Source: an uncultured virus (IMG/VR IMGVR_UViG_3300027771_000010) (lineage: Duplodnaviria > Heunggongvirae > Uroviricota > Caudoviricetes). Taken from it: a stretch of DNA of 64,000 nt. A program made the position numbers and the translations under genes. Positions 12,348 through 55,603 of this stretch are shown here, one piece after another. The DNA lies in the IMG/VR virus record IMGVR_UViG_3300027771_000010; one strand, written 5' to 3'. Positions within the stretch are counted from its first letter, which is position 1, and each line of letters begins with the position of its first letter. The notes under the pieces are model-generated. The model saw only the letters and a program-made list of their open reading frames with translations, was not told the DNA's origin and ran no database searches.

Positions 12348-12694
12348 TACCAGTCCATTACTTTTTTAATGTTCCTAGCTTTCTTAAGCTTCTCATTTTC
12401 AATATCATATTCTGTTGTTGCACTTGTGTATGCATCAAGTAGCTTAGTCATTAATTCTTTTAAACTTTTTACATTGATAGGATTTTGTTTGCTATCAATT
12501 ACAATCGAGTCTTTGCGTTCTAAGTCTATTAATGTTTTTACAAACGCAATTGTTTCGTGGTCGGCTAAGAACACTCCGCCTAAGTAATGCACAATTTGTA
12601 ACTGTGCTACTCTGTTTTTAATGTTTCTTTTTTGATTGTTTATTGTTAAAGCATAGTTACTGAACTCTAATGCTTTAGATAATCTCTCGTCCAT
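12347..12694 (-). CDS. Hypothetical phage protein (115 aa)
   Basis: AAGGAG RBS; TAATG overlap with the downstream gene. Confidence 0.75.
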   Translation of the reverse strand: MDERLSKALEFSNYALTINNQKRNIKNRVAQLQIVHYLGGVFLADHETIAFVKTLIDLERKDSIVIDSKQNPINVKSLKELMTKLLDAYTSATTEYDIENEKLKKARNIKKVMDW

Positions 12695-12711
12695 AGTTTT
12701 CTCCTTTAAGT

Positions 12712-12745
12712 GAATGTACGATAAATGTTACTTTATCGTACATTC
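12712..12745. repeat. Perfect 14-bp inverted repeat (stem-loop)
   Basis: GAATGTACGATAAA-tgttac-TTTATCGTACATTC between yhhQ and the GT cluster. Confidence 0.8.
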
Positions 12746-12756
12746 TATTTGTTTGT

Positions 12757-13368
12757 CTAATCTTCTACTCTGCTTTGTAGATACTTTAATAGTACGCCAT
12801 ATGCTGGCAAGAAGATAATAAGCCCTACTGCAATTTTTAGTACAACCTGTGAGCCTGCGATTTCTATCCAGTTCGCTGCCATGTACTCGTCTGCTGAGTT
12901 GCTGAATGCCACCCAAAAGAATGTATACGTATCAATTATATTTGCTGCCACTGTAGAAACTGCTGGTGCAATCCACCACATCTTTGAGAATCCTTCTCTG
13001 ATGTATTGAAATACATAGACGTCAAGTAGTGTACCTACTGCATATGCAGATGCACTTGCTAAACCAATTCTAAGAGCAACACTAGTTGGTGCTCCTTCTA
13101 GCATTACTACTGCAATAGATCCAATAATTGCTAACGGGTATGCCGCTAAAATTGTTGAACGTGCAATATTTTTGCCTAGCATTCTTACTGTTAAGTCGGT
13201 TGCGAGTACAACTAATGGGAAAGTAAATGCTGCCCATGTTAGTTTTACTCCAAACATTTCCACTGGAATGGAAACTAGTGCGTTAGATATAACAACAATC
13301 ACAACATGCAGTAATGCAAGTTTAATCATCATAGCTTTATCGACGCCTTCTAATAGTCTTGAAATCAT
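12757..13368 (-). CDS. yhhQ: Queuosine-precursor (preQ0/preQ1) transporter, YhhQ/VUT family
   Basis: Hydrophobic 203 aa with SNALV, TWAAFTFP..LATDLTVR..G...AR, RI..AS..AY..G.LLD..VF, WW.AP..ST...N.IDT..FF..AF, close to the E. coli YhhQ pattern. Confidence 0.92.
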   Translation of the reverse strand: MISRLLEGVDKAMMIKLALLHVVIVVISNALVSIPVEMFGVKLTWAAFTFPLVVLATDLTVRMLGKNIARSTILAAYPLAIIGSIAVVMLEGAPTSVALRIGLASASAYAVGTLLDVYVFQYIREGFSKMWWIAPAVSTVAANIIDTYTFFWVAFSNSADEYMAANWIEIAGSQVVLKIAVGLIIFLPAYGVLLKYLQSRVED

Positions 13369-16198: not shown

Positions 16199-19100
16199 TT
16201 ATAATTGTATTCCCTTGCTAATTGCCGACAACTCTGCTGCCGCTGTTGAGCTAGGACTATTCAATATCGTACTACCTACTACATTATATTGTAATGTTGC
16301 AGGGCTGTTAGTGTATGTAAGTTGGTTAGTATCTACTTGTGTAATAGAGTCTCCTAACGCACCTACCGCTCTAAATGTGTTGTTAACGTTTCTAGCTATA
16401 ACTGTTACTGTAGTTGCATCAACTTTAGTATATGTAATCAGTTCGCCGTTAATATATAATGTACCTGTTGCTGTAATGCCAGCAGTACTAGTTACTATTA
16501 TTTTAGTATCATTAAGTCCAAGTTCAGAAGCTAACGTTGTTTCCTTAGCACTTGCTAATGCATACGCAATAACGTTGCCTGTGTTGTCTTGTAAATGTAC
16601 AAACGTTCTTGTGTTAGTATCGTATGTGCTTCCACTTGTATTTGTTTGTACTGCTATGCTTAATGATTCTGTTACACTTGCTTTAACCTTTTCAGTAGTA
16701 GCAAAACTATTAATAGTAGAGCTTATCTTAGTATGGAAAGGTTTAACATCTTGTATGTAACCAGTTATGTTATGAATTTTATTTCTCTTATACTTTCTAG
16801 CCGTTGTGTTAAACTCGCTAGCAATCTCAACTTTAATATAAGTTGTCTTTCTAATCCAGTTAGTTTGAGGTAATGAACTTAACACATAGTCAACAACACC
16901 AAAGAATAATTTATTCATCTTAAGTTTGTTTCTACCTATGAAGATGTCTTCGTCTAATGCTGTTATTAATGTCTGCCAATACTCTGCAACGTTGTCAACA
17001 TCCCACTTGCCGCTATCCCAATATCCGCCTTTGATAACAGTTCCGTTTGCTGTTGTACGTGTGCCTTCGGCGCTCTTGTCATATCCCATTTCAGGACATA
17101 AGTCTGCTACGCTAAATTCAATACTACTATTCTTTTTAAGAACTAGTACCCATTCGGCCTTCTCATCATTATACGCATAAATTTCACTTCTGTCAAGGTC
17201 TGCTTCAACATTAAACAATTTAATTTTCACTACCTTATGAAAGTCTCTGTCTATGTTTATTAAGTCTGCAACACTTGTGGCAGTTGTTGTGTAATTAAAT
17301 GTACCATTGTATCTAGTTGGCTTATGATCAATCCACTTCCATAACGTTGTAGGGAAGTTGTTTGCAACTAATGTTCTGTCCCACTTGTTAGTATACGCAT
17401 CATCTACTAATACTGATCTAAGTTCATAGTTAATAGCTTCAGCTGTATTTCTTCTACCTTCGTTTATGTTGTTAAACCAAGACTGTCCAATGTCAAGACT
17501 GTCGCCGTATTTGTTAAATTTGTGTAGCGTGTTGAATGGGATTCTAGCCTTAACACTATTCCATCCAGCCAAGCTGTACTTCATTCCTTGTATATAATAT
17601 CCAGGAATATTATCATAACCTTTAGCAATTAATGTCCACTCGTTGTGTGACTTAAACTTGTTAGGTGCTTTATTAATTTGTAGTACTGTACTCTTATTGT
17701 CTACGTAATAAGATATATTGTCTACAATAAATTCATTTGCTGTTAGTGCAGCGAACCAACTTACACCGTTAGTTGATGGGCTTCTAATAATATTAGCAAC
17801 ATCAAATGCTGATAGTGTTCTTTCGTCTTGCACTGTTGTTTTGTTCTTAACCCAGTAATAATAAACATCATCATTTGATCCGTTTGCTGAGTTAAACTGT
17901 GTAGTTAGTGTGTAATGATATACTAGTTCTGCAGTAAGTTTATCGTATACTGCGTAAGCCTCACCTGTTGCAGGTACGCCGTAAATCTCTTTACCAAACA
18001 ATACAGACTCTGCATAGTCGTCTGGTGCTACTGAAGATTTAATCCATTCCCATACTACAATTTCTGATCCAGGATATAACTCTCCCCACTTGGAAACTCT
18101 ATACTCTAGACCTCCCTGATCGTAATCATAATATCTAGCTTTACTAGTGTCCCACCATCTTGTTCCTAATTGTTCTGTACCCCAAGCATTATTATCGTCT
18201 ACTGATTGTCCTGTGTCAGATGATGTATTATAAATTGCGTTGTCTGATACATTTATAATATCTACATTCTGTTTAGCAATACCCGGTATAATATGTCTTA
18301 AAGGATCAAACGATTCTAATATGATATTAGATTTATTCTTTTTATAATTATATACAGTAATATTATCTATGTCTTTATTAGTAGGTCTGCTTAGTGTCTG
18401 TCTCTTAGCTGTCACTGTACTTCCTGTGATGTTACTTACATAAGTTCCTAATACACTTGCATTGCTGTCTTCGTATATAAGTGTCTTAGCTGGTAAGTTC
18501 CATGAAGCAAGTGCAATTGCAGATGCTCGTTGTACTTCATCTGTAAATCTTGTTGTAACTAATGGCATGATTGATACTGCGTTACCGCACATCTCAATAA
18601 ACTCGTCTATGTAAAATACTGTATCTAGTGTGCCTACTTTTGTTACTTTGTGAATACCATCTATGTTAGGAGTAGTAGTTGTGTTTAGTAACTGCACAAA
18701 GTCTCCTACTTGTAATCCGTGTGCTACGTTAGTAGTAACCTCTGCATCGTTTCCATCTAATGTTGATGTACCTGCACAAATTCCACAACCGTCTGTTGCT
18801 GTAGTATATGAATACAATGGTGCTGGTCTTTGCGTAACTTGTAAAACATTCCAACCAAAGAACTTAGTAGTTATAGATCCTCTTGACGCTACTTCAAATG
18901 CACTATCGTCTGTAACTAGTATGTTGTATAATGCGTTGTCAGATGTTTGTGCTGTAGATCCAAAGTCGGTTACATCAAATGTGTTAACTACTCCACCGTC
19001 TGTTGCTATTTTAGTTCCTGTGTCAAAACCTGCTAGCGTGTTGAAAGTAGTGTCACCTAATGTAAGTGATGTTCCTGTTGAACTAATTATTATGTTGTTA

Positions 19101-22100
19101 CCAACAGTTGCTATTGTTACTTCTGTATTTCCTGCCGCTGTAATTGCTGCCTGTATCAATGTAACTGCATCACTTCTAACAGTTGGTACAGCAATAGTTG
19201 AAGTTGTTGCTGAGTAAGTTGTATTTAATCCCACAGTAGTTCTAGCTGTACCTGCTACTGCTAATGTTACACCTGTGCTTACTAATTTTAATTTGTTGGC
19301 AACGTTACTTGCTGTAACGTTAACTAATGCTGATGTTGCATTAATCTGTGCTACAATCTCAGTAATGTTTAATTGTGCTGGCTGTAGTTGTAACTCGACT
19401 GGTACTGCAATAGTGTGTCCGCCAGTTGCAAATCCTAGTGCCGCATTGCTTGCCGCTGGTGCTATTATTAATACATCACCTACGCCTCCAGCATATGCTA
19501 TTTCTAATACATTACTTGCTGTAACTAATGAAGATGTAACACCTGTTACACCGGCTGCATTAATAGCATCTCTAATTCCAGTTGTTGTTATACCAACTGT
19601 TACATGTGTTAATGTAATTACAATAGCTTGTCCGGCTGTTGGTGCTGTAGTGAATGTTATATTTTGTCCACTAAGCGTGTATGCTGTTGTTGCTGTTCCA
19701 TTAACGGTAACCGAAGCTATGCTAAATGTACTTCCACTTAATGCTTGTGCAATTGTAAACGTAGCTTGTAGAACTGGATTAAGTGCAGTTCCATTGTTTA
19801 CACCTGTAAAGTTTTCAATTACGTTTGCTGGTGTTGAACCAAAGCTAATTGCTGTGCCATTAATTGTAATGCCTTGTCCAGTTACATCTGCAAATGCAAC
19901 GTTACCTAAAGTTGAACGCTGTATTGCTGGGCCTGTAACTACTTGAACGTTTGCAGTTTTACTAAAGCCAATGTTAATGTTATCAATTACTAATGTTTCG
20001 CTTGGCAAAAATGTAGGACTAGTTGCTGTACCATTTGCAATTATTGGTTGGTACTCAGTTGATGTGTTATTAAATGTTACCGAAGTACCTGCTATTTCTG
20101 CTATAGTTCCGTGTGGGAAGTCTGCTCGTGATGCTCTACTTGTTTCCAATATAGTGGCTGTTGTTTCTGTTAAGCCTGTAAAGTTCACACTACATTTCCA
20201 AAGCTGTCCTTGGTGTCTTACTTGCTCACCTTTTTTATAACTTGTATAATTATTCCAAGTAGGTACGAGTGCGTAAGGCTCTGTCTTCTCAAACACAGAT
20301 GAAATATCATCTGCGGATAGTATTCTATATTTAACTTCGTGGTCTAACGCGGCGCCGCCTGTTAGTATAAAGTTCCAATCATATGTAAAGTCTTTTGTGT
20401 CAAAAGTTATTGCTTTGTTATTAATAATACGCTCTGGTGCTGTGTATGTTACTCCAGCCTTCGCGCCGCCTGCTGGTGTATCTTGTGTAGAGATACATTG
20501 TGGCGATGCAACTAAATCTGAAGAACGTAATTCTATTTCTAATACTTCTTCTAAGTCATTATTTCCTAATTCACTTTGTCTAAACATGTACTGATCATAT
20601 GCGTTCAGTTTTGTAATGCCTTCGTCAACTATTGATGCTCTATTAAATCTATCAATTGATGCTGTAGTACCTTGTTGCTTAATTGATCCTTGATGGAACT
20701 TAGTAAGTACATTCTTATTAATACCTAATCCATCTGCCCATGTCTTATTAACATTTCCTATTGCAAGATCCTTTGATTGAGTAAACGCACCATTAAATGA
20801 ATCCACATCTGTTCTATACATGTCGTCAATGCTTTGTACTGCACTATCAAAGTTTTCTACAATATGATCATCAAACACTAAGTAGCCAGGAGCAGTTTTA
20901 GTTCCGTTCCAATTAGCTGTTCGTTGTCCTCTTAGCACTAAACGCTTTTGTGTTTGGTTTAACACGTCATCATATATTGCAACGCCTAGTTTAGTTTTAT
21001 TTTCAAATATCATAACATGATCATACTCAAGTACTGCACTAGTAATGCTACCTATGAACTCTGCATTCTTAGTAGCTACTGTAACAAGTCCTTTAGATCT
21101 GTTAACACTTAGGTCGCTGTCTTGTAATGTTTTGTTGAACATTGTTAATACATCGTTACCATTGGAAGTTAGTTTGTTGTATGGATATACAGTACCGTAT
21201 AAAGTTTTAAACGATATTGTTCTACCTATCTGTAAAACAAATGTATCTGTGTTGTCTGCTGTAAGAGCCCAGTTAACAAAGTCTGATGCTGAACTATCTC
21301 CATCAAATTCTAATGTGTATCCAAATTTTGTTAGTAAACTAAAGTATCCTCTAACAAAGTTATAAACATCTTGCATCTTCTCAACGGCTGCACCGTATTC
21401 AATTGTGCTAGCTGTTGTTACAAATTTATTATATCTTCTAACTGTTGAGCCTTGTACTGTTACTAATTCATAATCAGTAGTATCTGCAATGTTAGGTTCA
21501 AAAAAGTTAAACTCTTGTTTGTTGTTACTTAATCCAGAAAGAGTAAATCCTGTTAAAGTCTTTGTAATAAAAATTGCACTAGCTGTTACTAATCTAGTTG
21601 GTCTGCCTTGATACATATCAATTGTAAAGTCAGCCTTGCCAAATTCAAAGTCGCCTGTTAAACTACTTTCTGCAAACACTTCAAGCAATTCTTTACTACT
21701 AAAGCCACCTAACTTTTCGTGTAGCTTAGTATCTAGGTTTGTATATAACTGTCCTTGTGACAAATTACTATTTTGATTTCTTAGTATAAAGTTATACTGT
21801 GCCTGTGAAAGACCGTTAGCTACGTATCCAATTCTACCTGTTGTAATTTTAAAATCTATTCCTGCAATATTGGATGCTCCACCTGAGTAAGAAACTATTG
21901 GGCTTCCAGTAAACTTCACGCCTCTGTTTGTAAGACTTAATGCACTAACCTTGCTAGATGCATTTAGTTTAAAGTTTGTTGTAGCTGTTGTGCTTCCAAA
22001 GTCATCAAGTACTATAAAGCTCTCAGTTGCTGATACTGTTGTTGGTGATGCTTGTACTTCAATATTAATAATTGAATTACCATACGTGTTGCCAGGTACT

Positions 22101-25100
22101 TTATAAGACTTACTACTTCCAAATCTACCTGCGTTCTGAATTCCTGCATAGCCATTGTTGTGTATGCCTGGTTGGAAGAATGCACTCCAAGCTCTAGCAG
22201 GATTTAATTTTATAATAGCATCAACGCCTGCGGCTTGTCCTTGTGGAGATACTCTCCATTCGTATTCCTCTGAACTCCAATCGCCAAACTTAAATGCAGA
22301 TGATGCATCAACGTTTGCCGGAGTACCAATTACTGTTGTTAAATCTTCTAATGTACCTGAACCTGTTACTGGTGATTTAGTTGCAAAGTCCCAATGTGGT
22401 CTTGCAAATACTATATCATGTGTAGGTGTTCCTGAAGGATCACTTACTAGTCCATTCTTTAATGCACTTAGTAACGCTGTACGTTTTGAACCAGTTACCC
22501 AGCTATAGTTTGCATCCCACCATGTTGGCTTAAATGAATGCCCTAGCATATGCCAAGGAGTTAAGTCAGGTGTTGCTGTTCCAAACAAATGAACATACAC
22601 ACCTTTATAGTGTCCTGGTGTTGCATTTGAATAGTTAAATCCTAATGGTATAGTACTGTAGTTCCATGTTGTGTTATCGTTGGCTACATATTGGTTTGCT
22701 TGGTTAAGAGAACCTTTTTGTTTCAGCTCTGCCCAATGCTTAAAATGTTTTTCTAAATAATTGTTTAACAGCTCTAACGAATACCAAGTAGCTGACGCTT
22801 GTGTTGGTAAGAAGTTATAGTATGATGATGTGTTAGTATTATCGTATGTTGTATCTTCTTTAACTAGTCCAGCATACACACGTGTTTCTAATTCAAACAG
22901 TGCCGCATTAACTGGGTCAAACAAACTTGAGTTATTTGGATTAGTTAAATCTGCGTTAGCTTTTAATACTATCTCTACACCATCATGTGTATACAATATA
23001 TTATTTGATACTACCGGCTGTGTTCCATATGCTAATCCTAGCTTAACCAAACTAGCAGGTACATAACACTCACTGTCCATTTGATTGTATACTACTTCTA
23101 GTACAGGTGTTACAGTTGTGTTATATGTAAGCAATATAGTAATTGCATTACCTAGCTGTGTGTAATCAATATCTTTTCTTAAAATTCTTTTATATGTGTT
23201 AGTACCATCTGACTCAGTTAGGTAAACATACACGTGGTCTCTAATATTAACGTCACCGTTAAAAGTCCACTTAGTTTCAAATTCTTTAACTGATGTATCT
23301 GTAATAGTAAATGTTTGTAATGCATCTTCACTATTAAACAACATATTAGAATCGCTGTGTAGCTTGCTTGTTCGTTTGTTTCTCAACAATGCAGTTAGCG
23401 TAGCTGTTGTTAATTCTTGTACTGATGGATAAGCAGTTACTGAGTATAAACGTTTTGCTTGTGCTTTGAATCTTTCTCTAAACGCATCCCAATCACCAGC
23501 TTGTTCAATAAGAGATCCTGTAACATCTAGTTTCTCATCTGAATAACATATGTCATTCATTACTGCAATGTCATCATGTAGGAACAAAGTTCCGCCTGTG
23601 CTTCTGTTGTGTGTAATTGATCCGTAGTTATTCTCACCAAATGTATTTCTATCAAACGATGGATTGGCATTTAGTTTATCTGCCCAATGATCTATTGTTT
23701 CACTTATTGTAAATGTTTTAATTACTTTGTTGTGTACGTTATGCTGTGTTACTTGTGGGTAACTATAATTCTTTACGTTGTTGTTTTGCTTGTTACTGTT
23801 CCATGTAAAATCAACTAAGTCGTCTGCAGTTAATGCAGTTTCGTCAATAGTAATACTAGAGCCTGTTACTGTAACTAATGCATCCTTAATACGTTTACCA
23901 TTTAATGTAATATCAAAATAGTTAGCGTCCCACTCATTAGAGATATTAAATGATCCTATTCTACTAGATCCTGCTCTAACATCAAATGTGCCGCCTATGC
24001 TTGATGAACCTGTTTCAATCTTTACAACATCGCCGAAGCGTTGTATTGTTATATCTGGATTGTTTGCATGACTTGGGTTTGCTTCAATGTCAATGCCTCC
24101 TGGTGCTATAAACGTAAGTGCGTCTGTTGTTGAATTAACAAACTTAATTATATGAGAATATCCTATGTTATATTCACGTGTACCAGTAAATGTAATTGCA
24201 GTTCCGTCTGAAACGTTTCTTCTTGTTACAGCTAGCTTACCAGCAATGTGATGTACATTAAATTCTTCTTGATGTGGTCTCCATTTTCCATGACCATATG
24301 GAATAACTAAATCAGTATCAGGATTTGTAATTTTATACTGTACTGTTTCTTTTGCGCCAAAGTTAAGATCTGATTTATTATAAACACCTTCAAGAACATT
24401 TCGTTTCTTATATAAACTATATCCTGTAAGGTTCTGATGATAATCTAACTTTGCATTTTCTGCTTGTGTGAAGTTAGCTTTATATCTAGTTGTTAGTATA
24501 AAGTTTTGAAATTGATACTCAGCACCTTTTAAAGAATCCTTATAACTTAATTTCATTCCAAGCTCAGTATCAACTGCACCCTTGCCTGGCTTATATCCAA
24601 ATATCTTCTCGCCTTTAAAGTTAGTACCAGCAATGTCGCTTAGTAATTTACCTGTATGATCATAAAACTTATAAAGTGGATATTGGTTGATCTTTGTCTT
24701 CTGTTGTGCTAAAGTAATAGTACTGTTAGTATAATACACATCTGCATTAACCCAAGCACTTAATGTATTATCAAGTACAGCTTTAATTGTCATTGTATTA
24801 TTTTCAGCAAGCGTAACACTTGTTGGTGTTGCTGCCTGTGTATATACTTTTGTATCTGAGTTGTCAACGTATACGTATGTTGAGCCAACTGGAATAGCAG
24901 ATAACACATCACCTGTCTTAACACCAAAGTCTATTGTGCCAAGGCTTACAGGATTAACATGTCTTGCATGGTTCCATAAATCTATTCTTGCTGTGTATTC
25001 TATAATAGGTCTTATTGCTTTTCTTTTAGTAGTAATTATATTATCAAAGTTTTGGAAAGGCATAATGCTTTTTAATTTATTAATTGCACTGATGTTAACC

Positions 25101-26350
25101 CAATGGTTTGCTCTACTCCATGCTGTGTTAAACACGTCATGTTTCTCAATAAGTAAATAATCTTTTAATGGTTCTACTGGTAACATCCAATCCCACATAG
25201 CAGTATCAAATGTTTCTGCTCTTGCTATCATTGCACGTTCAGCTAGTGTTGCGTCAGACGCAATAGCAAGTGTGTACTTGTCATTAACACTATCATATGT
25301 TGCTACTATTACTTTCTTAATACTAAGATTGCCAGTAGTAGCATCACGTTTAGTTACGTAAATAGATTCTGAGTCATCGAGAGTTGCATCAACCCATCCT
25401 GTTCCTGTGAACTTAACTAACACGTTTTCATTATACAATGACTTATTAGATTCTACATCTTCAAATATAAAGCCATCAAAAACCGGTAACCTATCTGCTA
25501 TAGGATCTGCATTATATGCAGTAAGTAATGCTCCGTAATTTCTTTTTCCAAACGGTGCCAGCCAGTATTTGTTATTTGTATTAGGTGTAACAGAATGTAC
25601 TTTGCTGTTATCCCAAATACCATCATTGGCTTGTGTATGTTTTGTAACACTGTTATAAACTCTTATTTGATTAAAATCAATATAAAGTTCAAACCTATGT
25701 TCACCGTTTCCTTCACCTGTACCTAATACAATATATGTACTTCCTCTACATGCTACATCGTAGCCTGAGCCAACAAACTTAATTAACATATTATTTTCTA
25801 ATACAATTGTATTAGTGTCATCTACTAATGTATATACATTGGTATTTTGAATATCAGTTAATGGATTCTTGCTTGTGCCTGTGTAGATACTAGTATAAAT
25901 TGGAAGCTCTTCAACCCAATAGTAATTATTAAAGTTAATAAACTTATCAATATTAAAAGGCGGGTTATAAGAAAATGCATTAGACGAGTATGCTGAGTTA
26001 TAGTTGTACTCATTAAAGTTTGCATTCAACGAGTGTACTACATCGTCATATGTAATCTTGTTTGTTATAGCTCCAGTGTTATCATAAGATATAATACCAG
26101 GCGTTAATGAAGTTGATTTTCTTAGTTTAACTTCTGTAACTGGGTCAACATATGAGTCATGTGCTTGAGCTTCTGAGCCATGTCTACTACCTATGTATCC
26201 ATCAACTTGGTCCAATGGTCCTTTTGAAACCATTTGATCTAATGTACTATCAAGCCAACTATTATTTAATTCAGTTTGGAATACTTGAGGTAAAAACTTC
26301 TTTGTTTTGATACTGCGGACCTTTGATGAACCTGCTTTTTTATTCGCCAT
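16199..26350 (-). CDS. Giant baseplate wedge/structural protein (3383 aa)
   Basis: Directly downstream of gp6; FLPQVFQT, DKFINFNNYYW, YIQDVKPFHTKI; internal CBM5/12-like and flagellin-IN-like modules. Confidence 0.8.
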   Translation of the reverse strand: MANKKAGSSKVRSIKTKKFLPQVFQTELNNSWLDSTLDQMVSKGPLDQVDGYIGSRHGSEAQAHDSYVDPVTEVKLRKSTSLTPGIISYDNTGAITNKITYDDVVHSLNANFNEYNYNSAYSSNAFSYNPPFNIDKFINFNNYYWVEELPIYTSIYTGTSKNPLTDIQNTNVYTLVDDTNTIVLENNMLIKFVGSGYDVACRGSTYIVLGTGEGNGEHRFELYIDFNQIRVYNSVTKHTQANDGIWDNSKVHSVTPNTNNKYWLAPFGKRNYGALLTAYNADPIADRLPVFDGFIFEDVESNKSLYNENVLVKFTGTGWVDATLDDSESIYVTKRDATTGNLSIKKVIVATYDSVNDKYTLAIASDATLAERAMIARAETFDTAMWDWMLPVEPLKDYLLIEKHDVFNTAWSRANHWVNISAINKLKSIMPFQNFDNIITTKRKAIRPIIEYTARIDLWNHARHVNPVSLGTIDFGVKTGDVLSAIPVGSTYVYVDNSDTKVYTQAATPTSVTLAENNTMTIKAVLDNTLSAWVNADVYYTNSTITLAQQKTKINQYPLYKFYDHTGKLLSDIAGTNFKGEKIFGYKPGKGAVDTELGMKLSYKDSLKGAEYQFQNFILTTRYKANFTQAENAKLDYHQNLTGYSLYKKRNVLEGVYNKSDLNFGAKETVQYKITNPDTDLVIPYGHGKWRPHQEEFNVHHIAGKLAVTRRNVSDGTAITFTGTREYNIGYSHIIKFVNSTTDALTFIAPGGIDIEANPSHANNPDITIQRFGDVVKIETGSSSIGGTFDVRAGSSRIGSFNISNEWDANYFDITLNGKRIKDALVTVTGSSITIDETALTADDLVDFTWNSNKQNNNVKNYSYPQVTQHNVHNKVIKTFTISETIDHWADKLNANPSFDRNTFGENNYGSITHNRSTGGTLFLHDDIAVMNDICYSDEKLDVTGSLIEQAGDWDAFRERFKAQAKRLYSVTAYPSVQELTTATLTALLRNKRTSKLHSDSNMLFNSEDALQTFTITDTSVKEFETKWTFNGDVNIRDHVYVYLTESDGTNTYKRILRKDIDYTQLGNAITILLTYNTTVTPVLEVVYNQMDSECYVPASLVKLGLAYGTQPVVSNNILYTHDGVEIVLKANADLTNPNNSSLFDPVNAALFELETRVYAGLVKEDTTYDNTNTSSYYNFLPTQASATWYSLELLNNYLEKHFKHWAELKQKGSLNQANQYVANDNTTWNYSTIPLGFNYSNATPGHYKGVYVHLFGTATPDLTPWHMLGHSFKPTWWDANYSWVTGSKRTALLSALKNGLVSDPSGTPTHDIVFARPHWDFATKSPVTGSGTLEDLTTVIGTPANVDASSAFKFGDWSSEEYEWRVSPQGQAAGVDAIIKLNPARAWSAFFQPGIHNNGYAGIQNAGRFGSSKSYKVPGNTYGNSIINIEVQASPTTVSATESFIVLDDFGSTTATTNFKLNASSKVSALSLTNRGVKFTGSPIVSYSGGASNIAGIDFKITTGRIGYVANGLSQAQYNFILRNQNSNLSQGQLYTNLDTKLHEKLGGFSSKELLEVFAESSLTGDFEFGKADFTIDMYQGRPTRLVTASAIFITKTLTGFTLSGLSNNKQEFNFFEPNIADTTDYELVTVQGSTVRRYNKFVTTASTIEYGAAVEKMQDVYNFVRGYFSLLTKFGYTLEFDGDSSASDFVNWALTADNTDTFVLQIGRTISFKTLYGTVYPYNKLTSNGNDVLTMFNKTLQDSDLSVNRSKGLVTVATKNAEFIGSITSAVLEYDHVMIFENKTKLGVAIYDDVLNQTQKRLVLRGQRTANWNGTKTAPGYLVFDDHIVENFDSAVQSIDDMYRTDVDSFNGAFTQSKDLAIGNVNKTWADGLGINKNVLTKFHQGSIKQQGTTASIDRFNRASIVDEGITKLNAYDQYMFRQSELGNNDLEEVLEIELRSSDLVASPQCISTQDTPAGGAKAGVTYTAPERIINNKAITFDTKDFTYDWNFILTGGAALDHEVKYRILSADDISSVFEKTEPYALVPTWNNYTSYKKGEQVRHQGQLWKCSVNFTGLTETTATILETSRASRADFPHGTIAEIAGTSVTFNNTSTEYQPIIANGTATSPTFLPSETLVIDNINIGFSKTANVQVVTGPAIQRSTLGNVAFADVTGQGITINGTAISFGSTPANVIENFTGVNNGTALNPVLQATFTIAQALSGSTFSIASVTVNGTATTAYTLSGQNITFTTAPTAGQAIVITLTHVTVGITTTGIRDAINAAGVTGVTSSLVTASNVLEIAYAGGVGDVLIIAPAASNAALGFATGGHTIAVPVELQLQPAQLNITEIVAQINATSALVNVTASNVANKLKLVSTGVTLAVAGTARTTVGLNTTYSATTSTIAVPTVRSDAVTLIQAAITAAGNTEVTIATVGNNIIISSTGTSLTLGDTTFNTLAGFDTGTKIATDGGVVNTFDVTDFGSTAQTSDNALYNILVTDDSAFEVASRGSITTKFFGWNVLQVTQRPAPLYSYTTATDGCGICAGTSTLDGNDAEVTTNVAHGLQVGDFVQLLNTTTTPNIDGIHKVTKVGTLDTVFYIDEFIEMCGNAVSIMPLVTTRFTDEVQRASAIALASWNLPAKTLIYEDSNASVLGTYVSNITGSTVTAKRQTLSRPTNKDIDNITVYNYKKNKSNIILESFDPLRHIIPGIAKQNVDIINVSDNAIYNTSSDTGQSVDDNNAWGTEQLGTRWWDTSKARYYDYDQGGLEYRVSKWGELYPGSEIVVWEWIKSSVAPDDYAESVLFGKEIYGVPATGEAYAVYDKLTAELVYHYTLTTQFNSANGSNDDVYYYWVKNKTTVQDERTLSAFDVANIIRSPSTNGVSWFAALTANEFIVDNISYYVDNKSTVLQINKAPNKFKSHNEWTLIAKGYDNIPGYYIQGMKYSLAGWNSVKARIPFNTLHKFNKYGDSLDIGQSWFNNINEGRRNTAEAINYELRSVLVDDAYTNKWDRTLVANNFPTTLWKWIDHKPTRYNGTFNYTTTATSVADLINIDRDFHKVVKIKLFNVEADLDRSEIYAYNDEKAEWVLVLKKNSSIEFSVADLCPEMGYDKSAEGTRTTANGTVIKGGYWDSGKWDVDNVAEYWQTLITALDEDIFIGRNKLKMNKLFFGVVDYVLSSLPQTNWIRKTTYIKVEIASEFNTTARKYKRNKIHNITGYIQDVKPFHTKISSTINSFATTEKVKASVTESLSIAVQTNTSGSTYDTNTRTFVHLQDNTGNVIAYALASAKETTLASELGLNDTKIIVTSTAGITATGTLYINGELITYTKVDATTVTVIARNVNNTFRAVGALGDSITQVDTNQLTYTNSPATLQYNVVGSTILNSPSSTAAAELSAISKGIQL

Positions 26351-50600: not shown

Positions 50601-51698
50601 ATGGCTAATGCAATAGAACAACTCCTAAGTTCAGAAGTCCTATCAGAAGAAGTGCGTTCGACACTTTCAGAGGCATGGGAAGTAAAATTAAGTGAAGCTC
50701 GTGAAGAGATCACTGCCGAATTACGTGAAGAATTCGCTAACAGATACGAAACTGATAAAACGTCGATGGTGGAAGCACTTGACGCGATGGTATCAGATAC
50801 GATCAAATCAGAGTTAGTAGAATTTGCAGCGGACAAAAAAGCGGCAGTATCATCTCAAGTTGAGTATAAGCGTAAAATTGCTGAGCATGCGAATCTGCTT
50901 GATAAGTTTGTTATGGAAACACTTAACAAGGAAATTACAGAACTACGCAAAGACAGAAAGCTACAAGAAGGAAACTTCGAGCAGCTGGAAGATTTTGTGA
51001 TGGAACAACTTACTTCAGAACTTAATGAATTCCATAATGACAAGAAAGACCTTATTGAACAAAAGGTAAAACTTGTTGCAGAAGGCAAAGAAATGATTAA
51101 ATCAGCTAAAGCTGAATTCATAAACAAAGCTTCTACAAAATTAGCAAGTATTGTTGAGAACACTATCTCAACTGAACTTACTGAGATTAAAGAAGATATT
51201 AAAACTGCTAAAGAAAATATGTTTGGACGTAAGTTGTTCGAAACTTTCGCAGCAGAATTTATGGGTTCTCACCTAGCAGAGGGAACACACATTTCAAAAC
51301 TTTCTAAAGAACTTTCTAATGTGAAGAGTCAATTAGATGAATCACATAAAGAAATTAAAGATAGAGAATCAAAAATCGTTCTTGCTGAATCAAAGGTAAC
51401 AAAGATTAATGAGAGTCGTGAGCGTGAGACAGTAATGTCAGACCTTATGTCACCACTATCAAAAGACAAACGCGAATTAATGGTAAATTTACTTGAGAGC
51501 GTAAGCACTAGTAAATTAAAAGTACAATTCAACAAATACCTACCAACGGTACTTAGTGAATCTACTACATCTGTTAAATCACAGAAACTAAATGAATCTC
51601 AGAAGACTGAGATTACAGGTAACAAGGCCGCAACTATTCAGGCAACTGAAAGTGAAGCCGAAATTATTAACCTTAAAAAGTTAGCAGGAATCAACTAA
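50601..51698 (+). CDS. gp22: Prohead core scaffold protein, T4 gp22-like
   Basis: E/K-rich coiled coil between gp21 and gp23; FGRKLFE.FA.EF. Confidence 0.88.
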   Translation: MANAIEQLLSSEVLSEEVRSTLSEAWEVKLSEAREEITAELREEFANRYETDKTSMVEALDAMVSDTIKSELVEFAADKKAAVSSQVEYKRKIAEHANLLDKFVMETLNKEITELRKDRKLQEGNFEQLEDFVMEQLTSELNEFHNDKKDLIEQKVKLVAEGKEMIKSAKAEFINKASTKLASIVENTISTELTEIKEDIKTAKENMFGRKLFETFAAEFMGSHLAEGTHISKLSKELSNVKSQLDESHKEIKDRESKIVLAESKVTKINESRERETVMSDLMSPLSKDKRELMVNLLESVSTSKLKVQFNKYLPTVLSESTTSVKSQKLNESQKTEITGNKAATIQATESEAEIINLKKLAGIN

Positions 51699-51711
51699 GG
51701 AGAATTCCCCA

Positions 51712-52875
51712 ATGACACAGAATCTATTTGAAAACTGGGCAGTAACAAAAGACGCCCTAACAGACGGTTTAGACGGTAACAAAAAGGTTGTAATGGAATC
51801 AGTTCTAGAAAACACTAAGAACTATCTTTCAGAATCAGCCGCAGCAGGAACAACAATGGCAGGCAACGTAGCTTCACTTAACAAAGTGATTTTACCAGTA
51901 ATCCGCCGTGTTATGCCTACTGTTATTGCAAACGAACTAGTTGGCGTACAGCCAATGACTGGTCCAGTAGGACAGATCCATACACTAAGAGTACGTTATG
52001 GTGAAGCAGGCGCAGGCGTTGCAGCCGGCGACGAAGCACTATCACCATTTGCTATTGCAAAAGGTTACTCAGGTGACGCATCAACTGGCGGACCAAGCTC
52101 AACTTCAAGTCTTGAAGCACAAGCTGGACGTAAGCTATCAATCCAAGTATTGAAGCAAACAGTAGAAGCGAAAACACGTAAACTATCAGCACGTTGGACT
52201 TTTGAAGCAGCACAAGATGCTAATTCAATGCACGGTTTGGACGTTGAAGCAGAAATTATGCAAGCACTTGCACAAGAAATTACTGCTGAAATCGACCAAG
52301 AAGTTCTTACTTCACTACGTACATTAGCTGGCGCAGCTGTTGACACATATGACCAAGGCGCAGTATCAGGTACTGCAACTTTCGTAGGTGACCAACACGC
52401 GGCATTAGCGGTTCTAATTAACCGTTCAGCTAACATCATTGCTACACGTACAAGACGTGGCGCAGGTAACTACGTTGTTATTTCACCAACTATGTTAACA
52501 GTACTTCAATCAGCGACTACATCAGCGTTCGCAAGAACAACTGAAGGTCCTTTTGAAGCACCTACTAACACTAAGTTTGTTGGAACACTAAACAACACTA
52601 TGCGTGTCTTTGTTGACCAGTATGCTGCAGATAATGCACCAGTACTAGTTGGCTATAAAGGCGACGGTGAAATTGATGCGGCAGCATTCTATTGCCCATA
52701 CATCCCACTTATGTCTTCAGGCACAGTACTTGACCCATCAACTTTCGAACCAACAGTGTCATTCATGACACGTTATGGTTATGTTGAGCTAAACAACCAG
52801 GCTTCATCACTTGGTAACGCAGCTGACTACCTATCGAAAATTGGTGTTAACGCAGGTAACCTTTCTTTCCAGTAA
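51712..52875 (+). CDS. gp23: Major capsid protein, T4 gp23-like
   Basis: IRRVMP..IA.ELVGVQPMTGP, VEAKTRKL.A.WT.E.AQD, EI.AEIDQE, TRRGAGN, FYCPYIPL, F.P...FMTRYG. Confidence 0.98.
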   Translation: MTQNLFENWAVTKDALTDGLDGNKKVVMESVLENTKNYLSESAAAGTTMAGNVASLNKVILPVIRRVMPTVIANELVGVQPMTGPVGQIHTLRVRYGEAGAGVAAGDEALSPFAIAKGYSGDASTGGPSSTSSLEAQAGRKLSIQVLKQTVEAKTRKLSARWTFEAAQDANSMHGLDVEAEIMQALAQEITAEIDQEVLTSLRTLAGAAVDTYDQGAVSGTATFVGDQHAALAVLINRSANIIATRTRRGAGNYVVISPTMLTVLQSATTSAFARTTEGPFEAPTNTKFVGTLNNTMRVFVDQYAADNAPVLVGYKGDGEIDAAAFYCPYIPLMSSGTVLDPSTFEPTVSFMTRYGYVELNNQASSLGNAADYLSKIGVNAGNLSFQ

Positions 52876-52900
52876 GAAATTACTAGAAGAATTAAAATTG

Positions 52901-52928
52901 AAACAGGTCCTTCGGGGCCTGTTTTATT
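52901..52928 (+). terminator. Intrinsic terminator after gp23
   Basis: AAACAGGTCC-TTCG-GGGCCTGTTT followed by TATT. Confidence 0.85.
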
Positions 52929-52950
52929 GACTGCGGTGTCATAAATACAT

Positions 52951-53001
52951 GTGTCGTTCATCCAGACGCAGGACGGAAGTAGCAATAGCGAAGGAACGCA
53001 C
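52951..53001 (+). ncRNA. Glutamine riboswitch (glnA RNA motif, glutamine-I type)
   Basis: CGTTCA-TCC-loop-GGA-CGGAAGTA-GC-aata-GC-GAAGGAACGC: P1 CGTTC/GAACG, P2, and E-loop GAAGTA/GAA; begins about 5 nt after a CATAAATA box (52940-52947). Confidence 0.8.
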
Positions 53002-53025
53002 TTAACTTTAATTAGGAGAGTGTTT

Positions 53026-53142
53026 ATGGATAAGTTCACGTTAATGAGATACTTACAACTAATCGCAGAACGAAAATTAGATCAAAAAAGAAAAGTGTTA
53101 TTCCGCAGATTTTATTTGAAAACGGTTGACACAGATAAATAA
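53026..53142 (+). CDS. 38-aa basic peptide downstream of the glutamine riboswitch (MDKFTLMRYLQLIAERKLDQKRKVLFRRFYLKTVDTDK)
   Basis: AGGAGAG RBS 5 nt before ATG 53026; the ORF-track GTG start lies inside the riboswitch. Confidence 0.7.
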   Translation: MDKFTLMRYLQLIAERKLDQKRKVLFRRFYLKTVDTDK

Positions 53143-53154
53143 TAATGTTATAGT
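53126..53154 (+). promoter_or_regulatory. Sigma70-type promoter (with embedded GATAAATA late box) for the Trp leader/tRNA-Trp unit
   Basis: TTGACA-17 nt-TATAGT with extended -10 TG. Confidence 0.8.
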
Positions 53155-53192
53155 TAATACATACTAGAAATAACAACAACAGGAATTACCCA

Positions 53193-53261
53193 ATGCACAA
53201 GAATACACAACAATCATTTTATTGGTGCTGGACAGCAATGTCTAGGTGTGTCTTGATGTAA
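53193..53261 (+). CDS. Tryptophan leader peptide (22 aa, MHKNTQQSFYWCWTAMSRCVLM)
   Basis: AGGA RBS 8 nt upstream; TGG-TGC-TGG at 53223-53231; followed by alternative hairpins and a terminator. Confidence 0.75.
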   Translation: MHKNTQQSFYWCWTAMSRCVLM

Positions 53262-53286
53262 CTTTAATCAAAAGGTTATTTTTTAC

Positions 53287-53321
53287 AAGCCCCTAGCATT
53301 AACGTGTTGGGGGCTTTTTTT
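53287..53321 (+). terminator. Attenuator terminator directly upstream of tRNA-Trp
   Basis: AAGCCCCTAGCA-ttaacg-TGTTGGGGGCTT (12 bp, 2 G-U) ending in a T7 tract. Confidence 0.85.
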
Positions 53322-53323
53322 AT

Positions 53324-53398
53324 AGGGGTGTAGTGTTAATGGTAACACGTTGGATTCCAAATCCAAAATTAGCGGTTCGAATCCGTTCACCTTTGCCA
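53324..53398 (+). tRNA. trnW: tRNA-Trp (anticodon CCA), CCA end encoded
   Basis: Acceptor AGGGGTG/CACCTTT, D-arm GTGT/ACAC, anticodon arm TTGGA-TTCCAAA-TCCAA, T-arm AGCGG-TTCGAAT-CCGTT, discriminator G, CCA. Confidence 0.95.
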
Positions 53399-53475
53399 TC
53401 ATAAATACAATTGTTATAATTAATAACACAGTATATAATAAACTTTATATGTCGCAATGAATAGGAGAAAATCAT

Positions 53476-54954
53476 ATGCCGTCAACAATCCCTTTCGATT
53501 CAGGTTTAGTATTAGGCAACATAGTTGACCCAAATCAAATTAAACTATTGAATACAATCGCACAACAACAAGAACCAGTAAATGAAGCTGAAGAAAAATT
53601 AAATGCATTAATTACTTCAAAGCATAAGTTAGATATGACTATGCAAGAAATGATAAATTCAAATGTACCCAAAGGAGCTTTGGGAAAGTTTGCTGAATCA
53701 ATTACTAAAACAGAAGAAGGTTTAACCCAAGCCGCAACTGAGTATGGTGCTGCAGTATTAAAGCAACAGCCTTTAATTCAGAAAGCTAAATCAGATGCAC
53801 ACAAAGCAGGTGGAACAATTCAATCTCACCCAGAGAGTCCAATAGACTGGGAAAAATCCCAAATTAAAAAATTAGCACTCAGCTCAGATACAATGATTAC
53901 TGATGCTCAATTTATTCGTAACGAAAACGAAGATGATTATTCAGGCGCACACGCCGAAGCAACAGCTACAGCAGCATCTGGAAGTGTCAAATATATATTT
54001 GGCCCAAAGATTAGTGCTAGTGTAGCTAGATCAGTAAAAAGTTCAACACTTGCTCAAACTTCAAAGCATAAGATTGCAGGAACACTAGTAATTACAGCTA
54101 CGTGTACTCATAAGATATCAGAAGTATTTGCTCCGTTTGTAATGGACCCAATAAAAGCAGTAACAGCATGGAATGCGTTGATGCCTGATAAAATGAATTC
54201 ACCAGAAGAAATTACAGCCGCAGCAAGCGTACCAGCTAAAGCTGGTGAAGTACTGTCTCTTCTTTCAGGACAAACAGTAGGTAGTTCGTTTGTTGGAATG
54301 GTACACGTACTACAAGTTGAAGAAACAAAATCAGCACAGAGTTCAGCAGCAGTATCAGCACAAGCTAAAGCAGTACTGGAATTTGGAGCATTTTATGCAC
54401 ACGGAAAAGGTGAATTTGGATCCGATGCAGAATTTAGCAATAGTGTTAAGAGTATGTTAAGTAATTCAGAATTATCATCACACTGTTCGCTTGTAACAAT
54501 GGGACTTATCCCTTCGTTAAAAAGTAATCAAGTCAAGACTAGTATCAGTCAGTTAAAACCATCAGCAAGTGAAGTAATGGAACAACTTGGAGCAATTCAA
54601 GGTTCTACTAGTTCAACAGTAAATAGTATATCTAGCGATGCAAACGCAGCCAAAGCAGGCGCTCAAGCTATATCGTTAAACAATAGTTATATTACTGGAG
54701 TTGTTTCTAACTTGTCAACAGTTGATAATGATAATAATAAGATTATTGATGTTAACTCGTTAATGACAGCATTTGATGATTACGTTGTTAAAGCCGCAGC
54801 AGGCGATTGCGGAATCCCTATTAACTTCTTTATTAAAGAAGTCACTAAGCCGGATATTGCAAAGTCATGGTTGCACAAATTTAGCCCACAAGAAAATTGG
54901 CAAAATAATGCATCGGGCGGAGAAGGTGGTGAAGCCACAGTAAAAGACAAATAA
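53476..54954 (+). CDS. Uncharacterised 492-aa Ser/Ala-rich protein (possible MACPF/CDC-like fold)
   Basis: CATAAATA (53400-53407) and AGGAG RBS; N-terminal helical part, beta-rich core, C-terminal GIPINFFIK. Confidence 0.75.
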   Translation: MPSTIPFDSGLVLGNIVDPNQIKLLNTIAQQQEPVNEAEEKLNALITSKHKLDMTMQEMINSNVPKGALGKFAESITKTEEGLTQAATEYGAAVLKQQPLIQKAKSDAHKAGGTIQSHPESPIDWEKSQIKKLALSSDTMITDAQFIRNENEDDYSGAHAEATATAASGSVKYIFGPKISASVARSVKSSTLAQTSKHKIAGTLVITATCTHKISEVFAPFVMDPIKAVTAWNALMPDKMNSPEEITAAASVPAKAGEVLSLLSGQTVGSSFVGMVHVLQVEETKSAQSSAAVSAQAKAVLEFGAFYAHGKGEFGSDAEFSNSVKSMLSNSELSSHCSLVTMGLIPSLKSNQVKTSISQLKPSASEVMEQLGAIQGSTSSTVNSISSDANAAKAGAQAISLNNSYITGVVSNLSTVDNDNNKIIDVNSLMTAFDDYVVKAAAGDCGIPINFFIKEVTKPDIAKSWLHKFSPQENWQNNASGGEGGEATVKDK

Positions 54955-54974
54955 AATAAGCAATGCTTATATTT

Positions 54975-55002
54975 AAAAAGACACTTAGGTGTCTTTTTTT
55001 TT
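54975..55002. terminator. Bidirectional intrinsic terminator
   Basis: AAAAAGACAC-ttag-GTGTCTTTTTTTTT between convergent genes. Confidence 0.8.
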
Positions 55003-55004
55003 GG

Positions 55005-55169
55005 CTAACTTTCTGTTTCTTGTGTTTTAAGCCACTCGAGGTACGCTGGTATCTTAGGGCATACTTCTTCGTGTGCATACATAGCTTCTTCAGTATACAT
55101 TTTGTTGCAAGCTATACATTCATAAATTTCATCTGCATGAATAATGTTTAGCTTACCAGCTTGTATCAT
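55005..55169 (-). CDS. 54-aa C2HC zinc-finger protein, not in the ORF track
   Basis: MIQAGKLNIIHADEIYECIACNKMYTEEAMYAHEEVCPKIPAYLEWLKTQETES: C-x2-C-x11-H-x3-C; ATGA overlap with the upstream gene; ends at the terminator. Confidence 0.7.
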   Translation of the reverse strand: MIQAGKLNIIHADEIYECIACNKMYTEEAMYAHEEVCPKIPAYLEWLKTQETES

Positions 55170-55603
55170 ATCAAACCTTTTACTTTCGCAACCCCAAAAA
55201 ATACACCAGCTATAGCTAATATTAAGAAGATACCAGCACTCAATGCAATAGTCATTGTAGACTGGGTAGCTTTAGCGTTAGCTTTCTTTCGATTGGTAGC
55301 TTGTATTTTTAAACCTGCATTGTATTGCTTTCTAAATTTACAAAAGTCTACGTAGCCATGCAGTCTTTGCTTGTTGAGCATAAACTCTAAGTCTCTTTCG
55401 TTCTTCTTTAGTTGTTCCTGAGCTTGAAATGCTTCCATAACATTTCCAGTGCCAGCCTTAACTTGTTTGTTAATTGCTTTTTCAGCACCGAAGTACTTTG
55501 TTATTGCTGTGCCTGCATCAGCAATCTCCCTGCCATTGGCAATAGTAGTCTTGATGACCTTAAACGCCGCATTGGCTATCATTAATTCTGCTAACATATC
55601 CAT
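55166..55603 (-). CDS. Hypothetical protein with C-terminal transmembrane helix
   Basis: AAGGAG RBS; IALSAGIFLILAIAGVFFGV. Confidence 0.75.
   Translation of the reverse strand: MDMLAELMIANAAFKVIKTTIANGREIADAGTAITKYFGAEKAINKQVKAGTGNVMEAFQAQEQLKKNERDLEFMLNKQRLHGYVDFCKFRKQYNAGLKIQATNRKKANAKATQSTMTIALSAGIFLILAIAGVFFGVAKVKGLI

Follow-up and report, generated by a model that had tools for sequence, protein, structure and literature searches.

A conserved leader with the layout of a trpL-type attenuator upstream of tRNA-Trp genes in uncultured marine phages

Introduction

What decides when a tRNA gene carried by a phage is expressed? Genes for tRNAs are usually thought to be controlled at their promoters, through growth rate and the stringent response, and by processing. 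The locus examined in the present study raises the question of whether a tRNA gene can instead be governed by a translated leader placed in front of it. It lies in a stretch of 64,000 nucleotides (nt) from an uncultured marine phage of the Caudoviricetes (IMG/VR record IMGVR_UViG_3300027771_000010), referred to here, as a whole and at full length, as the window. An earlier note on this DNA, made from the sequence alone, proposed that a short region upstream of a tRNA-Trp(CCA) gene is a trpL-type leader-peptide attenuator with the phage's own tRNA-Trp as the regulated gene. Comparative analysis of related leaders lends support to this proposal at the level of sequence, through a reading frame kept across insertions and deletions, covariation in the terminator and in the hairpin behind the Trp codon, and pairing of antiterminator strands with their own terminator arms. 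We consider it likely that the element is a ribosome-mediated attenuator that senses a Trp codon and has the phage tRNA-Trp as its output, so that the phage would probably make tRNA-Trp only when ribosomes stall for lack of tRNA-Trp.

Anatomy of the leader and terminator

The promoter, ribosome-binding site, 22-aa open reading frame (ORF), two TGG codons, 1:2 hairpin, terminator and tRNA-Trp(CCA) described in the earlier note were each recovered where the note had placed them, all on the plus strand. A sigma70-type promoter, TTGACA-17-TATAGT (53126-53154), with 11 of 12 consensus matches and an extended TG, is predicted to drive the leader; it is the joint best among 15 promoter-like sites in 51500-55500, against a mean of 11.3 sites in shuffled sequence. 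A Shine-Dalgarno sequence, AGGA (53181-53184), stands 8 nt 5' of the ATG at 53193, which opens a leader ORF of 22 codons, MHKNTQQSFYWCWTAMSRCVLM* (53193-53261). Codon 11 is a TGG (53223-53225), referred to below as the control codon, and codon 13 is a second TGG (53229-53231).

Directly behind the control codon lies hairpin P1, CTGGACA-GCAA-TGTCTAG (53228-53245), which corresponds to the 1:2 hairpin or anti-antiterminator of an attenuator. The antiterminator strand, segment 2 (53237-53255), can pair with 53286-53300, enclosing a middle hairpin, GTAACTTT/AAGGTTAT (53258-53279), in the antiterminator loop. A conserved block, GTCTTGATGTAACTTT (53250-53265), contains the stop codon. The predicted intrinsic terminator (53287-53321) consists of a 13-bp stem (53287-53316) with a 4-nt loop and a run of seven T (53315-53321), and it ends 2 nt before the tRNA-Trp(CCA) gene (53324-53398; found by ARAGORN, Rfam tRNA 59.8 bits), in which the CCA end is encoded. 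This tRNA is the sole gene between the terminator and the next promoter-like site. Minimum-energy folds also contain a long helix that is missing from the earlier note, here called P0, formed between the start-codon region (53194-53208) and the stop-codon region (53246-53260).

A leader family linked to tRNA-Trp

Relatives were sought with pattern scans built on the conserved block, the first of which included TGG, and the later of which needed no TGG, ATG, terminator or tRNA. Pooled, these scans gave at least 130 instances and at least 65 distinct segments among the matches listed, on which the later leader counts rest. At least 64 are distinct leaders with an ORF, from marine viral and metagenome contigs; a 65th segment (L372) had no leader ORF and was set aside as a chance match. 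Downstream of 61 of the 64, the first tRNA to follow is tRNA-Trp(cca), and the other three loci end 58-132 nt past the terminator, giving 61/61 informative cases. These downstream genes comprise 33 distinct sequences that are 59-99% identical, all with an encoded CCA, and the neighbouring genes and tRNAs vary between loci. Considering viral contigs only, 25 of the 120 listed pattern matches are a leader with a terminator, followed by tRNA-Trp in 25/25; the remainder are chance matches, mostly in coding DNA. The exact block pattern searched in 185,579 prokaryotic species genomes gave 15 matches, all of them chance occurrences in coding DNA.

An exact search with the tRNA core recovered nine loci, four of them identical to the window across the stretch compared. 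Two loci (L082 and L087) have very different tRNA arrays, yet carry homologous leaders and terminators before the same tRNA. A covariance model built from the 64 leaders recovers 67/67 leader loci at 84-157 bits, with the window scoring 111 bits at 53179-53321, and gave no significant match in 552 kb of other phage loci, including the T4 tRNA region. Judged from sequence, the element is a conserved family and a recurring module rather than a product of chance, because it recurs elsewhere as 64 distinct sequences; with at least that many versions in marine viral and metagenome contigs, the family is abundant and no one-off.

Among cultured phages there was no near match to the window region, and distant searches with this region and two other leader types found no isolate with the leader, the only matches being tRNA-Trp genes, the glutamine-riboswitch region described below and a terminator-like stretch in Pelagibacter phage HTVC010P. 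The small stable RNAs rnaC and rnaD of T4 were considered as analogues and rejected; their position is behind tRNA-Arg, where the cluster ends, and the covariance model does not match them. One window-like 90-kb contig (G002, of which L397 is 7000-13000) has five more tRNAs (Thr, Leu, Ala, Ser and Glu) some 72 kb from its tRNA-Trp, scattered among ORFs and with no such leader or terminator seen; the tRNA-Glu has its own TTGACA-type promoter.

Conservation of the reading frame

Features of the leader ORF were taken from the alignment columns of the covariance model, comprising 65 distinct rows, and not from ORFs picked by eye. At the aligned start, 64 rows have ATG and one has GTG, and in most rows AGGAA stands 5' of it (by eye). 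An ORF running from this start to a stop within the conserved block is kept in 65/65 rows, ranging from 17 to 22 codons across the family. In 63 rows the start lies 47, 50, 53, 56 or 59 nt from the block, every one of these distances placing it in frame with the TGA of GTCTTGA, and the frame is kept although the intervening hairpin changes in both length and sequence. The remaining two rows, at 51 and 57 nt, are frame-shifted. These two, L362 and the window, alone carry GTAAC in place of GTGAC, a G-to-A change that makes an in-frame TAA, and both peptides end in ...VLM.

A TGG lies in frame 30 or 33 nt from the start in 65/65 rows and is the only invariant sense codon of the ORF. The homologous loci therefore bear out the first of the two Trp codons to which the earlier note had assigned a sensing role (53223). 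The second (53229) is a peculiarity of the window variant: a second Trp codon occurs in few leaders only, at varying positions, and the one in the window lies past the zone in which a waiting ribosome would favour the antiterminator (see below). Beyond the initial M, the W and the end encoded by the block, whose invariance is partly owed to the search pattern, the peptides are poorly conserved, which fits a leader whose sequence does not matter. Taken as a whole, the frame signatures suggest that the leader ORF is translated.

Structural conservation and covariation

The window leader (53160-53325) folds at -48.7 kcal/mol, compared with -30.4 ± 3.6 kcal/mol in 200 shuffles (z = -5.1, no shuffle as good). 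Plain MAFFT alignments misplaced the variable hairpins, so that RNAalifold detected no more than the terminator and a 3-bp stem on them, and the covariance model was therefore built. On the model alignment, which is fitted to the structure and so favours it, 83.1% of the cells at paired positions are paired, compared with 80.5% after shuffling (0/500 as high) and 35-52% in slid controls. As the leaders are related by descent, the permutation figures here and below overstate independence.

The terminator stem has 93.8% of its cells paired and shows changes on both sides at 7 of its 13 pairs, and the terminator hairpins of the family range from -15.8 to -21.6 kcal/mol. In P1, four of the five modelled pairs have changed on both sides; the hairpin begins 0-4 nt past the TGG in all 36 distinct P1 regions, at -2.9 to -10.2 kcal/mol. 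The middle hairpin is paired in 97.4% of cells over 65 rows, most of its positions being invariant. For P0 the figure is 70.7%, with no double changes because its 3' side was fixed by the search pattern. Full-length folds pair codons 1-5 with the block and stop codon through this helix, and its 5' strand keeps the motif AAGAC or AAGAU across different reading frames (by eye). A further weak hairpin inside the ORF, Pa (0 to -4.3 kcal/mol), has the UG of the Trp codon at its end. The inner pairs of Pa vary freely and covary (CAAUUU/AAAUUG, CAACAU/AUGUUG, CAACAA/UUGUUG and CAAUAU/AUAUUG), and the UG and its partners never change.

Alternative folds of the leader

Folding was examined with a ribosome footprint of -12 to +15 around the first base of the peptidyl (P) site. 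When a footprint covers the first Trp codon of the window and the 3' arm of the terminator is left off, the fold of minimum energy contains the 2:3 antiterminator enclosing the GTAACTTT/AAGGTTAT stem, as the earlier note had predicted. Across the family, pairing of the terminator 5' arm with upstream RNA yields a median gain of -9.5 kcal/mol when the aminoacyl (A) site is on the Trp codon (-5 kcal/mol or better in 51/64), compared with -1.8 kcal/mol when it is on the stop codon (3/64) and -4.8 kcal/mol with no ribosome (30/64). The corresponding gains in the window are -6.9, -2.0 and -2.7 kcal/mol. Moving the A site downstream from the Trp codon reduces the gain from -9.5 kcal/mol at offset 0 to -6.9 at +1, -3.3 at +2 and about -1.7 from +3 onward. 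The permissive zone thus ends directly after the Trp codon, and in the window the maximum falls exactly at 53223, with the second TGG at 53229 being non-permissive. Because the energies alone do not set it apart, it is by its conservation and its position at this boundary that the Trp codon is singled out.

The antiterminator strand also tracks the terminator arm with which it pairs. In the window the duplex of segment 2 and the terminator arm has -9.2 kcal/mol. Over the family, duplexes between a leader's own segment 2 and arm average -13.16 kcal/mol, compared with -12.37 kcal/mol when arms are swapped (0/5000 permutations as good; 9/5000 in a reduced set of 25 combinations), and shuffled segment 2 sequences average -7.3 kcal/mol (0/300 as good as own). 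Across the family, 89-102 nt separate the control codon from the end of the U-run.

Transcription of the tRNA-Trp unit

A promoter of the form TTGACA-17-TAnnnT, with at least 10 of 12 matches, occurs at the same relative place in 49/64 leaders, with 23-38 nt between the end of its -10 hexamer and the ATG. Five of the 15 leaders without a near-consensus promoter are preceded by a tRNA no more than 260 nt away, which in some of them stands immediately 5' of the leader. The earlier note had named a separate tRNA promoter behind the terminator as something that would speak against regulation by the leader. The spacer between the T-run and the tRNA, determined at 61 loci, measures 0-11 nt in 39, 22-26 nt in two, 72-131 nt in 19 and 251 nt in one, and a spacer of 0-11 nt leaves no room for such a promoter (39/61). 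The longer spacers mostly hold one of two other conserved hairpin RNAs, with no evident promoter. As read from these sequences, the route from the leader promoter to tRNA-Trp, and in arrays also to the tRNAs that follow (Tyr, Pro, Cys, Ser and Met), runs through the terminator in most cases.

Contigs from four marine metatranscriptome runs cover the capsid gene, 52979-53158, and the region from 53315/53337 onward, though such contigs show neither ends nor levels of RNA. None of them covers 53176-53311, from which no conclusion follows either way for the same reason.

The spacers contain structured RNAs of their own. Most of the 20 spacers of 72-251 nt are occupied by an RNA of ~75 nt with a closing stem, ACUACACU...AGUGUAGU, and three inner hairpins (-21 to -30 kcal/mol), seen in L326, L306, L280, L284, L292 and others. 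A shorter variant of it (L300) recurs upstream of another tRNA in L398 (G003). A different long hairpin of ~100 nt lies between terminator and tRNA-Trp in L124 and L307. Neither RNA has a match in Rfam.

Model of regulation and alternative explanations

Building on the observed anatomy, conservation, frame maintenance, stem covariation, exclusive tRNA-Trp linkage and energetics of the alternative folds, a trpL-type mechanism would operate as follows. The sigma70-type promoter would start a transcript of ~160 nt, on which a ribosome would load at the AGGA/ATG and translate the ORF of 17-22 codons. Given sufficient charged tRNA-Trp, this ribosome would reach the stop codon in the conserved block and cover the G-rich segment 2, allowing the terminator (about -19 kcal/mol, U7-9) to form and RNA polymerase to halt 0-11 nt before the tRNA gene. 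Slow decoding of UGG would leave the ribosome waiting with UGG in its A site and the 5' arm of P1 held open; the freed 3' arm of P1 could then pair with the 5' arm of the terminator and block it, with read-through into tRNA-Trp and, in arrays, into the tRNAs behind. The tRNA-Trp produced would relieve the stall and so exert negative feedback on the capacity to decode UGG. Both termination at the predicted hairpin in the host and a read-through that responds to tRNA-Trp are expectations drawn from these modelled folds.

As to what the switch might serve, tryptophan starvation, one of two occasions suggested in the earlier note, is a poor rationale because more tRNA supplies no more tryptophan. 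The other, rescue of tRNA-Trp after attack by a host anticodon nuclease, is speculation. Failure to decode UGG could stem from host tRNA shut-off, from cleavage by a defence system or from the burst of late-gene translation. A broader view, which we offer only tentatively and hold to be doubtful, is that the module is a self-correcting switch for on-demand tRNA supply, widespread in marine phages, which opens tRNA-Trp only when UGG decoding fails. In arrays it would open the following block as well, in many cases Tyr, Pro, Cys, Ser or Met, and there the sensor could be multivalent. Y-W-C-P-P is a frequent reading of the codons near the switch point, which is suggestive only as a link to the arrays. 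Where a tRNA-Pro is in view (20 cases) or a tRNA-Cys is (five cases), a matching codon stands in the switch window every time, and this also holds for tRNA-Tyr in 8/9 cases; the link is weakened by the shortness of the flanks, by the presence of these codons in leaders with no such tRNA in view and by tRNA-Met, for which no case matched.

Several observations weigh against a Trp-sensing attenuator over tRNA-Trp. Only a single control codon is conserved, which is few for an attenuator; classical attenuators carry two to seven. The UG of this codon pairs in Pa inside the ORF, making a constraint at the level of RNA not fully separable from codon identity. A footprint on any codon upstream of Trp is also permissive, marking the Trp codon only as the 3' boundary of the zone. 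With no ribosome on the truncated transcript the antiterminator is preferred in 56/64 leaders by a loose measure, and minimum-energy folds leave the default state ambiguous. The tRNA also occurs without the leader: three of the nine loci recovered with the tRNA core (L085/L088 and L090) have a nearly identical tRNA-Trp and no leader, and a locus whose capsid protein is 94% identical (L002) has a different tRNA-Trp directly behind a promoter. Finally, the 64 leaders represent perhaps a dozen peptide types, the counts thus not being independent events, and the search patterns fix the conserved block, whereby diverged members, possibly lacking the TGG, could be missed.

Some of these points would equally suit a translation-coupled attenuator that is not specific for Trp and reports how ribosomes load on and finish the ORF, as a gauge of general translation capacity or of infection timing, with UGG kept for RNA structure or by descent. 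The permissive footprints from codon 2 up to the Trp codon, the one conserved Trp codon, the pairing of its UG in Pa together with the ability of its third G to open P1, and the coupling of the start region to the stop region by P0 are all in keeping with such a device. It leaves aside the fact that UGG is the sole invariant sense codon and coincides exactly with the 3' limit of the permissive zone, that the inner pairs of Pa covary with the UG and its partners fixed, that the linkage is exclusively to tRNA-Trp (61/61 informative cases), and that such a leader is absent from the other tRNAs in the window-like phage; we regard this explanation as unlikely. A somewhat smaller chance is given to an untranslated structured RNA of the riboswitch or T-box kind, in which P0, Pa and P1 would form a three-way junction that recognises a ligand, a protein or tRNA-Trp, in the last case through pairing of UGG with the anticodon or the CCA end, and thereby selects the terminator or the antiterminator. 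Covariation of Pa inside the supposed ORF changes amino acids, AAGAC is kept across reading frames, and the nucleotide block is strongly conserved where the peptide otherwise is poorly so, as would be expected of such an RNA. It would leave without explanation the start codon, the AGGA, the five in-frame length classes and the two compensated frame shifts; moreover, the junction is small and AU-rich, with Pa at only 0 to -4.3 kcal/mol, and the leader matches no T-box or riboswitch family in Rfam at E up to 10.

It is also conceivable, although we think it very improbable, that the leader RNA or a micro-peptide is itself the product and the hairpin merely ends that gene, tRNA-Trp being supplied, unregulated, by constitutive leak-through or by upstream transcription. 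The terminated RNA would have a compact stable fold of about -45 kcal/mol, attenuator RNAs such as rnTrpL can reportedly act in trans, and relatives hold another small structured RNA with its own terminator, a manA RNA, in the same slot. A strong terminator with no promoter behind it would then silence tRNA-Trp and the array tRNAs that follow; the antiterminator strand would have no reason to track the terminator arm, nor the stop codon to be held in position; and within the peptide only M, W and the block-encoded end are conserved.

If the Trp-sensing attenuator is correct, it would constitute a direct, demand-driven feedback on tRNA supply, in which the attenuator tests a codon and answers with the tRNA for that codon, and it would provide a first rule for the regulation of phage tRNA genes and arrays. 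It would also offer a natural readout of tRNA depletion during infection, bearing on host defences that target tRNAs, and a compact part of ~140 nt for engineering tRNA homeostasis.

Relation to known leaders

The closest layout is that of trpL of Escherichia coli (RF00513). Both have a promoter, a Shine-Dalgarno sequence, a short ORF with one or more Trp codons and a hairpin just 3' of the codon, as well as mutually exclusive antiterminator and terminator structures, and in both the stop codon is positioned such that a ribosome completing the ORF obstructs the antiterminator. The distance between the control codons and the U-run in trpL is of a similar scale to that in the phage family. The two differ in that the phage leader has one conserved Trp codon, compared with two in tandem in trpL, and possesses the additional long-range helix P0 and the middle hairpin. 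They differ also in their target, trpL regulating a biosynthetic operon and the phage module a tRNA, which lies outside the classical definition of an attenuator and whose output would feed back on the sensed quantity itself. RF00513 has no match in the window region at E up to 10, and its best match on a homologue (L300) is 24.3 bits (E 0.11), below the gathering score of 41. Rfam matches to the leader are all sub-threshold and to families of the attenuator type (PyrR, L10_leader, Phe_leader, Trp_leader and Thr_leader).

The pheM leader of the E. coli pheST operon controls an aminoacyl-tRNA synthetase operon by leader-peptide attenuation, sensing a run of Phe codons. It resembles the phage module in placing a leader-peptide attenuator over the decoding machinery and not over amino-acid synthesis; it differs in that its operon codes for a synthetase protein, whereas the gene controlled in the phage would be the tRNA itself. 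T-box leaders (RF00230) share with the phage leader a terminator/antiterminator switch that reports the state of one specific tRNA. They bind uncharged tRNA directly, are untranslated, measure 200-300 nt with a Stem I and specifier loop, and control synthetase or amino-acid genes, in contrast to the phage leader with its clear ORF signatures. No T-box match was found in 52500-53800 (E up to 10) or in five homologous loci (E up to 1).

By computation, the phage module contains a short ORF with a ribosome-binding site, a cognate control codon, a predicted terminator and mutually exclusive antiterminator and anti-antiterminator structures. It departs from known leader-peptide attenuators in that a tRNA stands where these have a gene for a biosynthetic or aminoacyl-tRNA synthetase protein. 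At the level of literature listings and abstracts, no description was found of a leader-peptide attenuator of a tRNA gene, and the terms 'tRNA gene' and 'tRNA operon' have 0 occurrences in the passages searched of a genome-wide attenuator survey (PMC2965389). The new point is the tRNA gene as the probable target of a leader-peptide attenuator.

Genomic context

The module occupies an intergenic stretch 3' of the major head protein gene (51712-52875; phrog_138, E 1.5e-99), with portal, prohead protease and baseplate genes nearby. The nearest cultured relatives by capsid protein are the jumbo myoviruses PA5oct, Vibrio phage 2.275.O and Sinorhizobium phage Phosso, with 67-70% amino-acid identity. 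No match to the leader or tRNA was found by blastn among the 80 closest major-capsid-relative loci, and the nearest record (G001) has no match to the module region. Capsid relatives without the tRNA have a GGTTGAC promoter at the equivalent place, at the end of a small ORF. Since relatives hold a manA RNA behind this equivalent promoter, the slot is a cargo site for small RNAs, and the DNA 3' of the capsid gene forms an island of interchangeable small structured RNAs.

In these relatives lacking the tRNA-Trp module, the manA RNA (RF01745) has its own terminator and lies at 5426-5633 in L045, 5427-5631 in L069 and 3131-3335 in L006, with scores of up to 79.9 bits; that in L045 scores 41.3 bits, under the gathering score of 55.2. 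In two of these loci a freshwater-2 RNA (RF02980; L045 5702-5784, L069 5702-5772) lies between the manA RNA and the next gene. Upstream of the module in the window, directly after the capsid-gene terminator, is a glutamine riboswitch aptamer (RF01739; 52953-53002, plus strand; 47.8 bits, gathering score 35), followed by a 38-codon ORF (53026-53142; MDKFTLMRYLQLIAERKL...), and this pair of riboswitch and small ORF is kept 3' of the capsid gene in about ten relatives. The matching riboswitch stretch in records of phage Melnitz overlaps a feature annotated as SsrA or transfer-messenger RNA (tmRNA); the idea of a tmRNA, which arose from this match, was rejected, as the match is the glutamine riboswitch. 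L002 has two tandem glutamine riboswitch aptamers. In this locus, the closest of the capsid relatives, two extra genes, by eye an LpxH-like metallophosphoesterase and a glycosyltransferase, are inserted 3' of the capsid gene (5002-6727), followed by the promoter-driven tRNA-Trp and then the riboswitch.

The sequence CATAAATA, which we take to resemble a T4-type late promoter motif, occurs at 52940-52947 and 53400-53407 within an 11-nt repeat, TCATAAATACA. The first copy precedes the riboswitch unit and the second overlaps the tRNA 3' end, ahead of a 492-codon gene; relatives have GATAAATA at the position of the second copy. Elsewhere in the window, the tail and baseplate region contains a single ORF of 3383 codons (16199-26350, minus strand), adjoining a 1031-codon homologue of a baseplate wedge protein.

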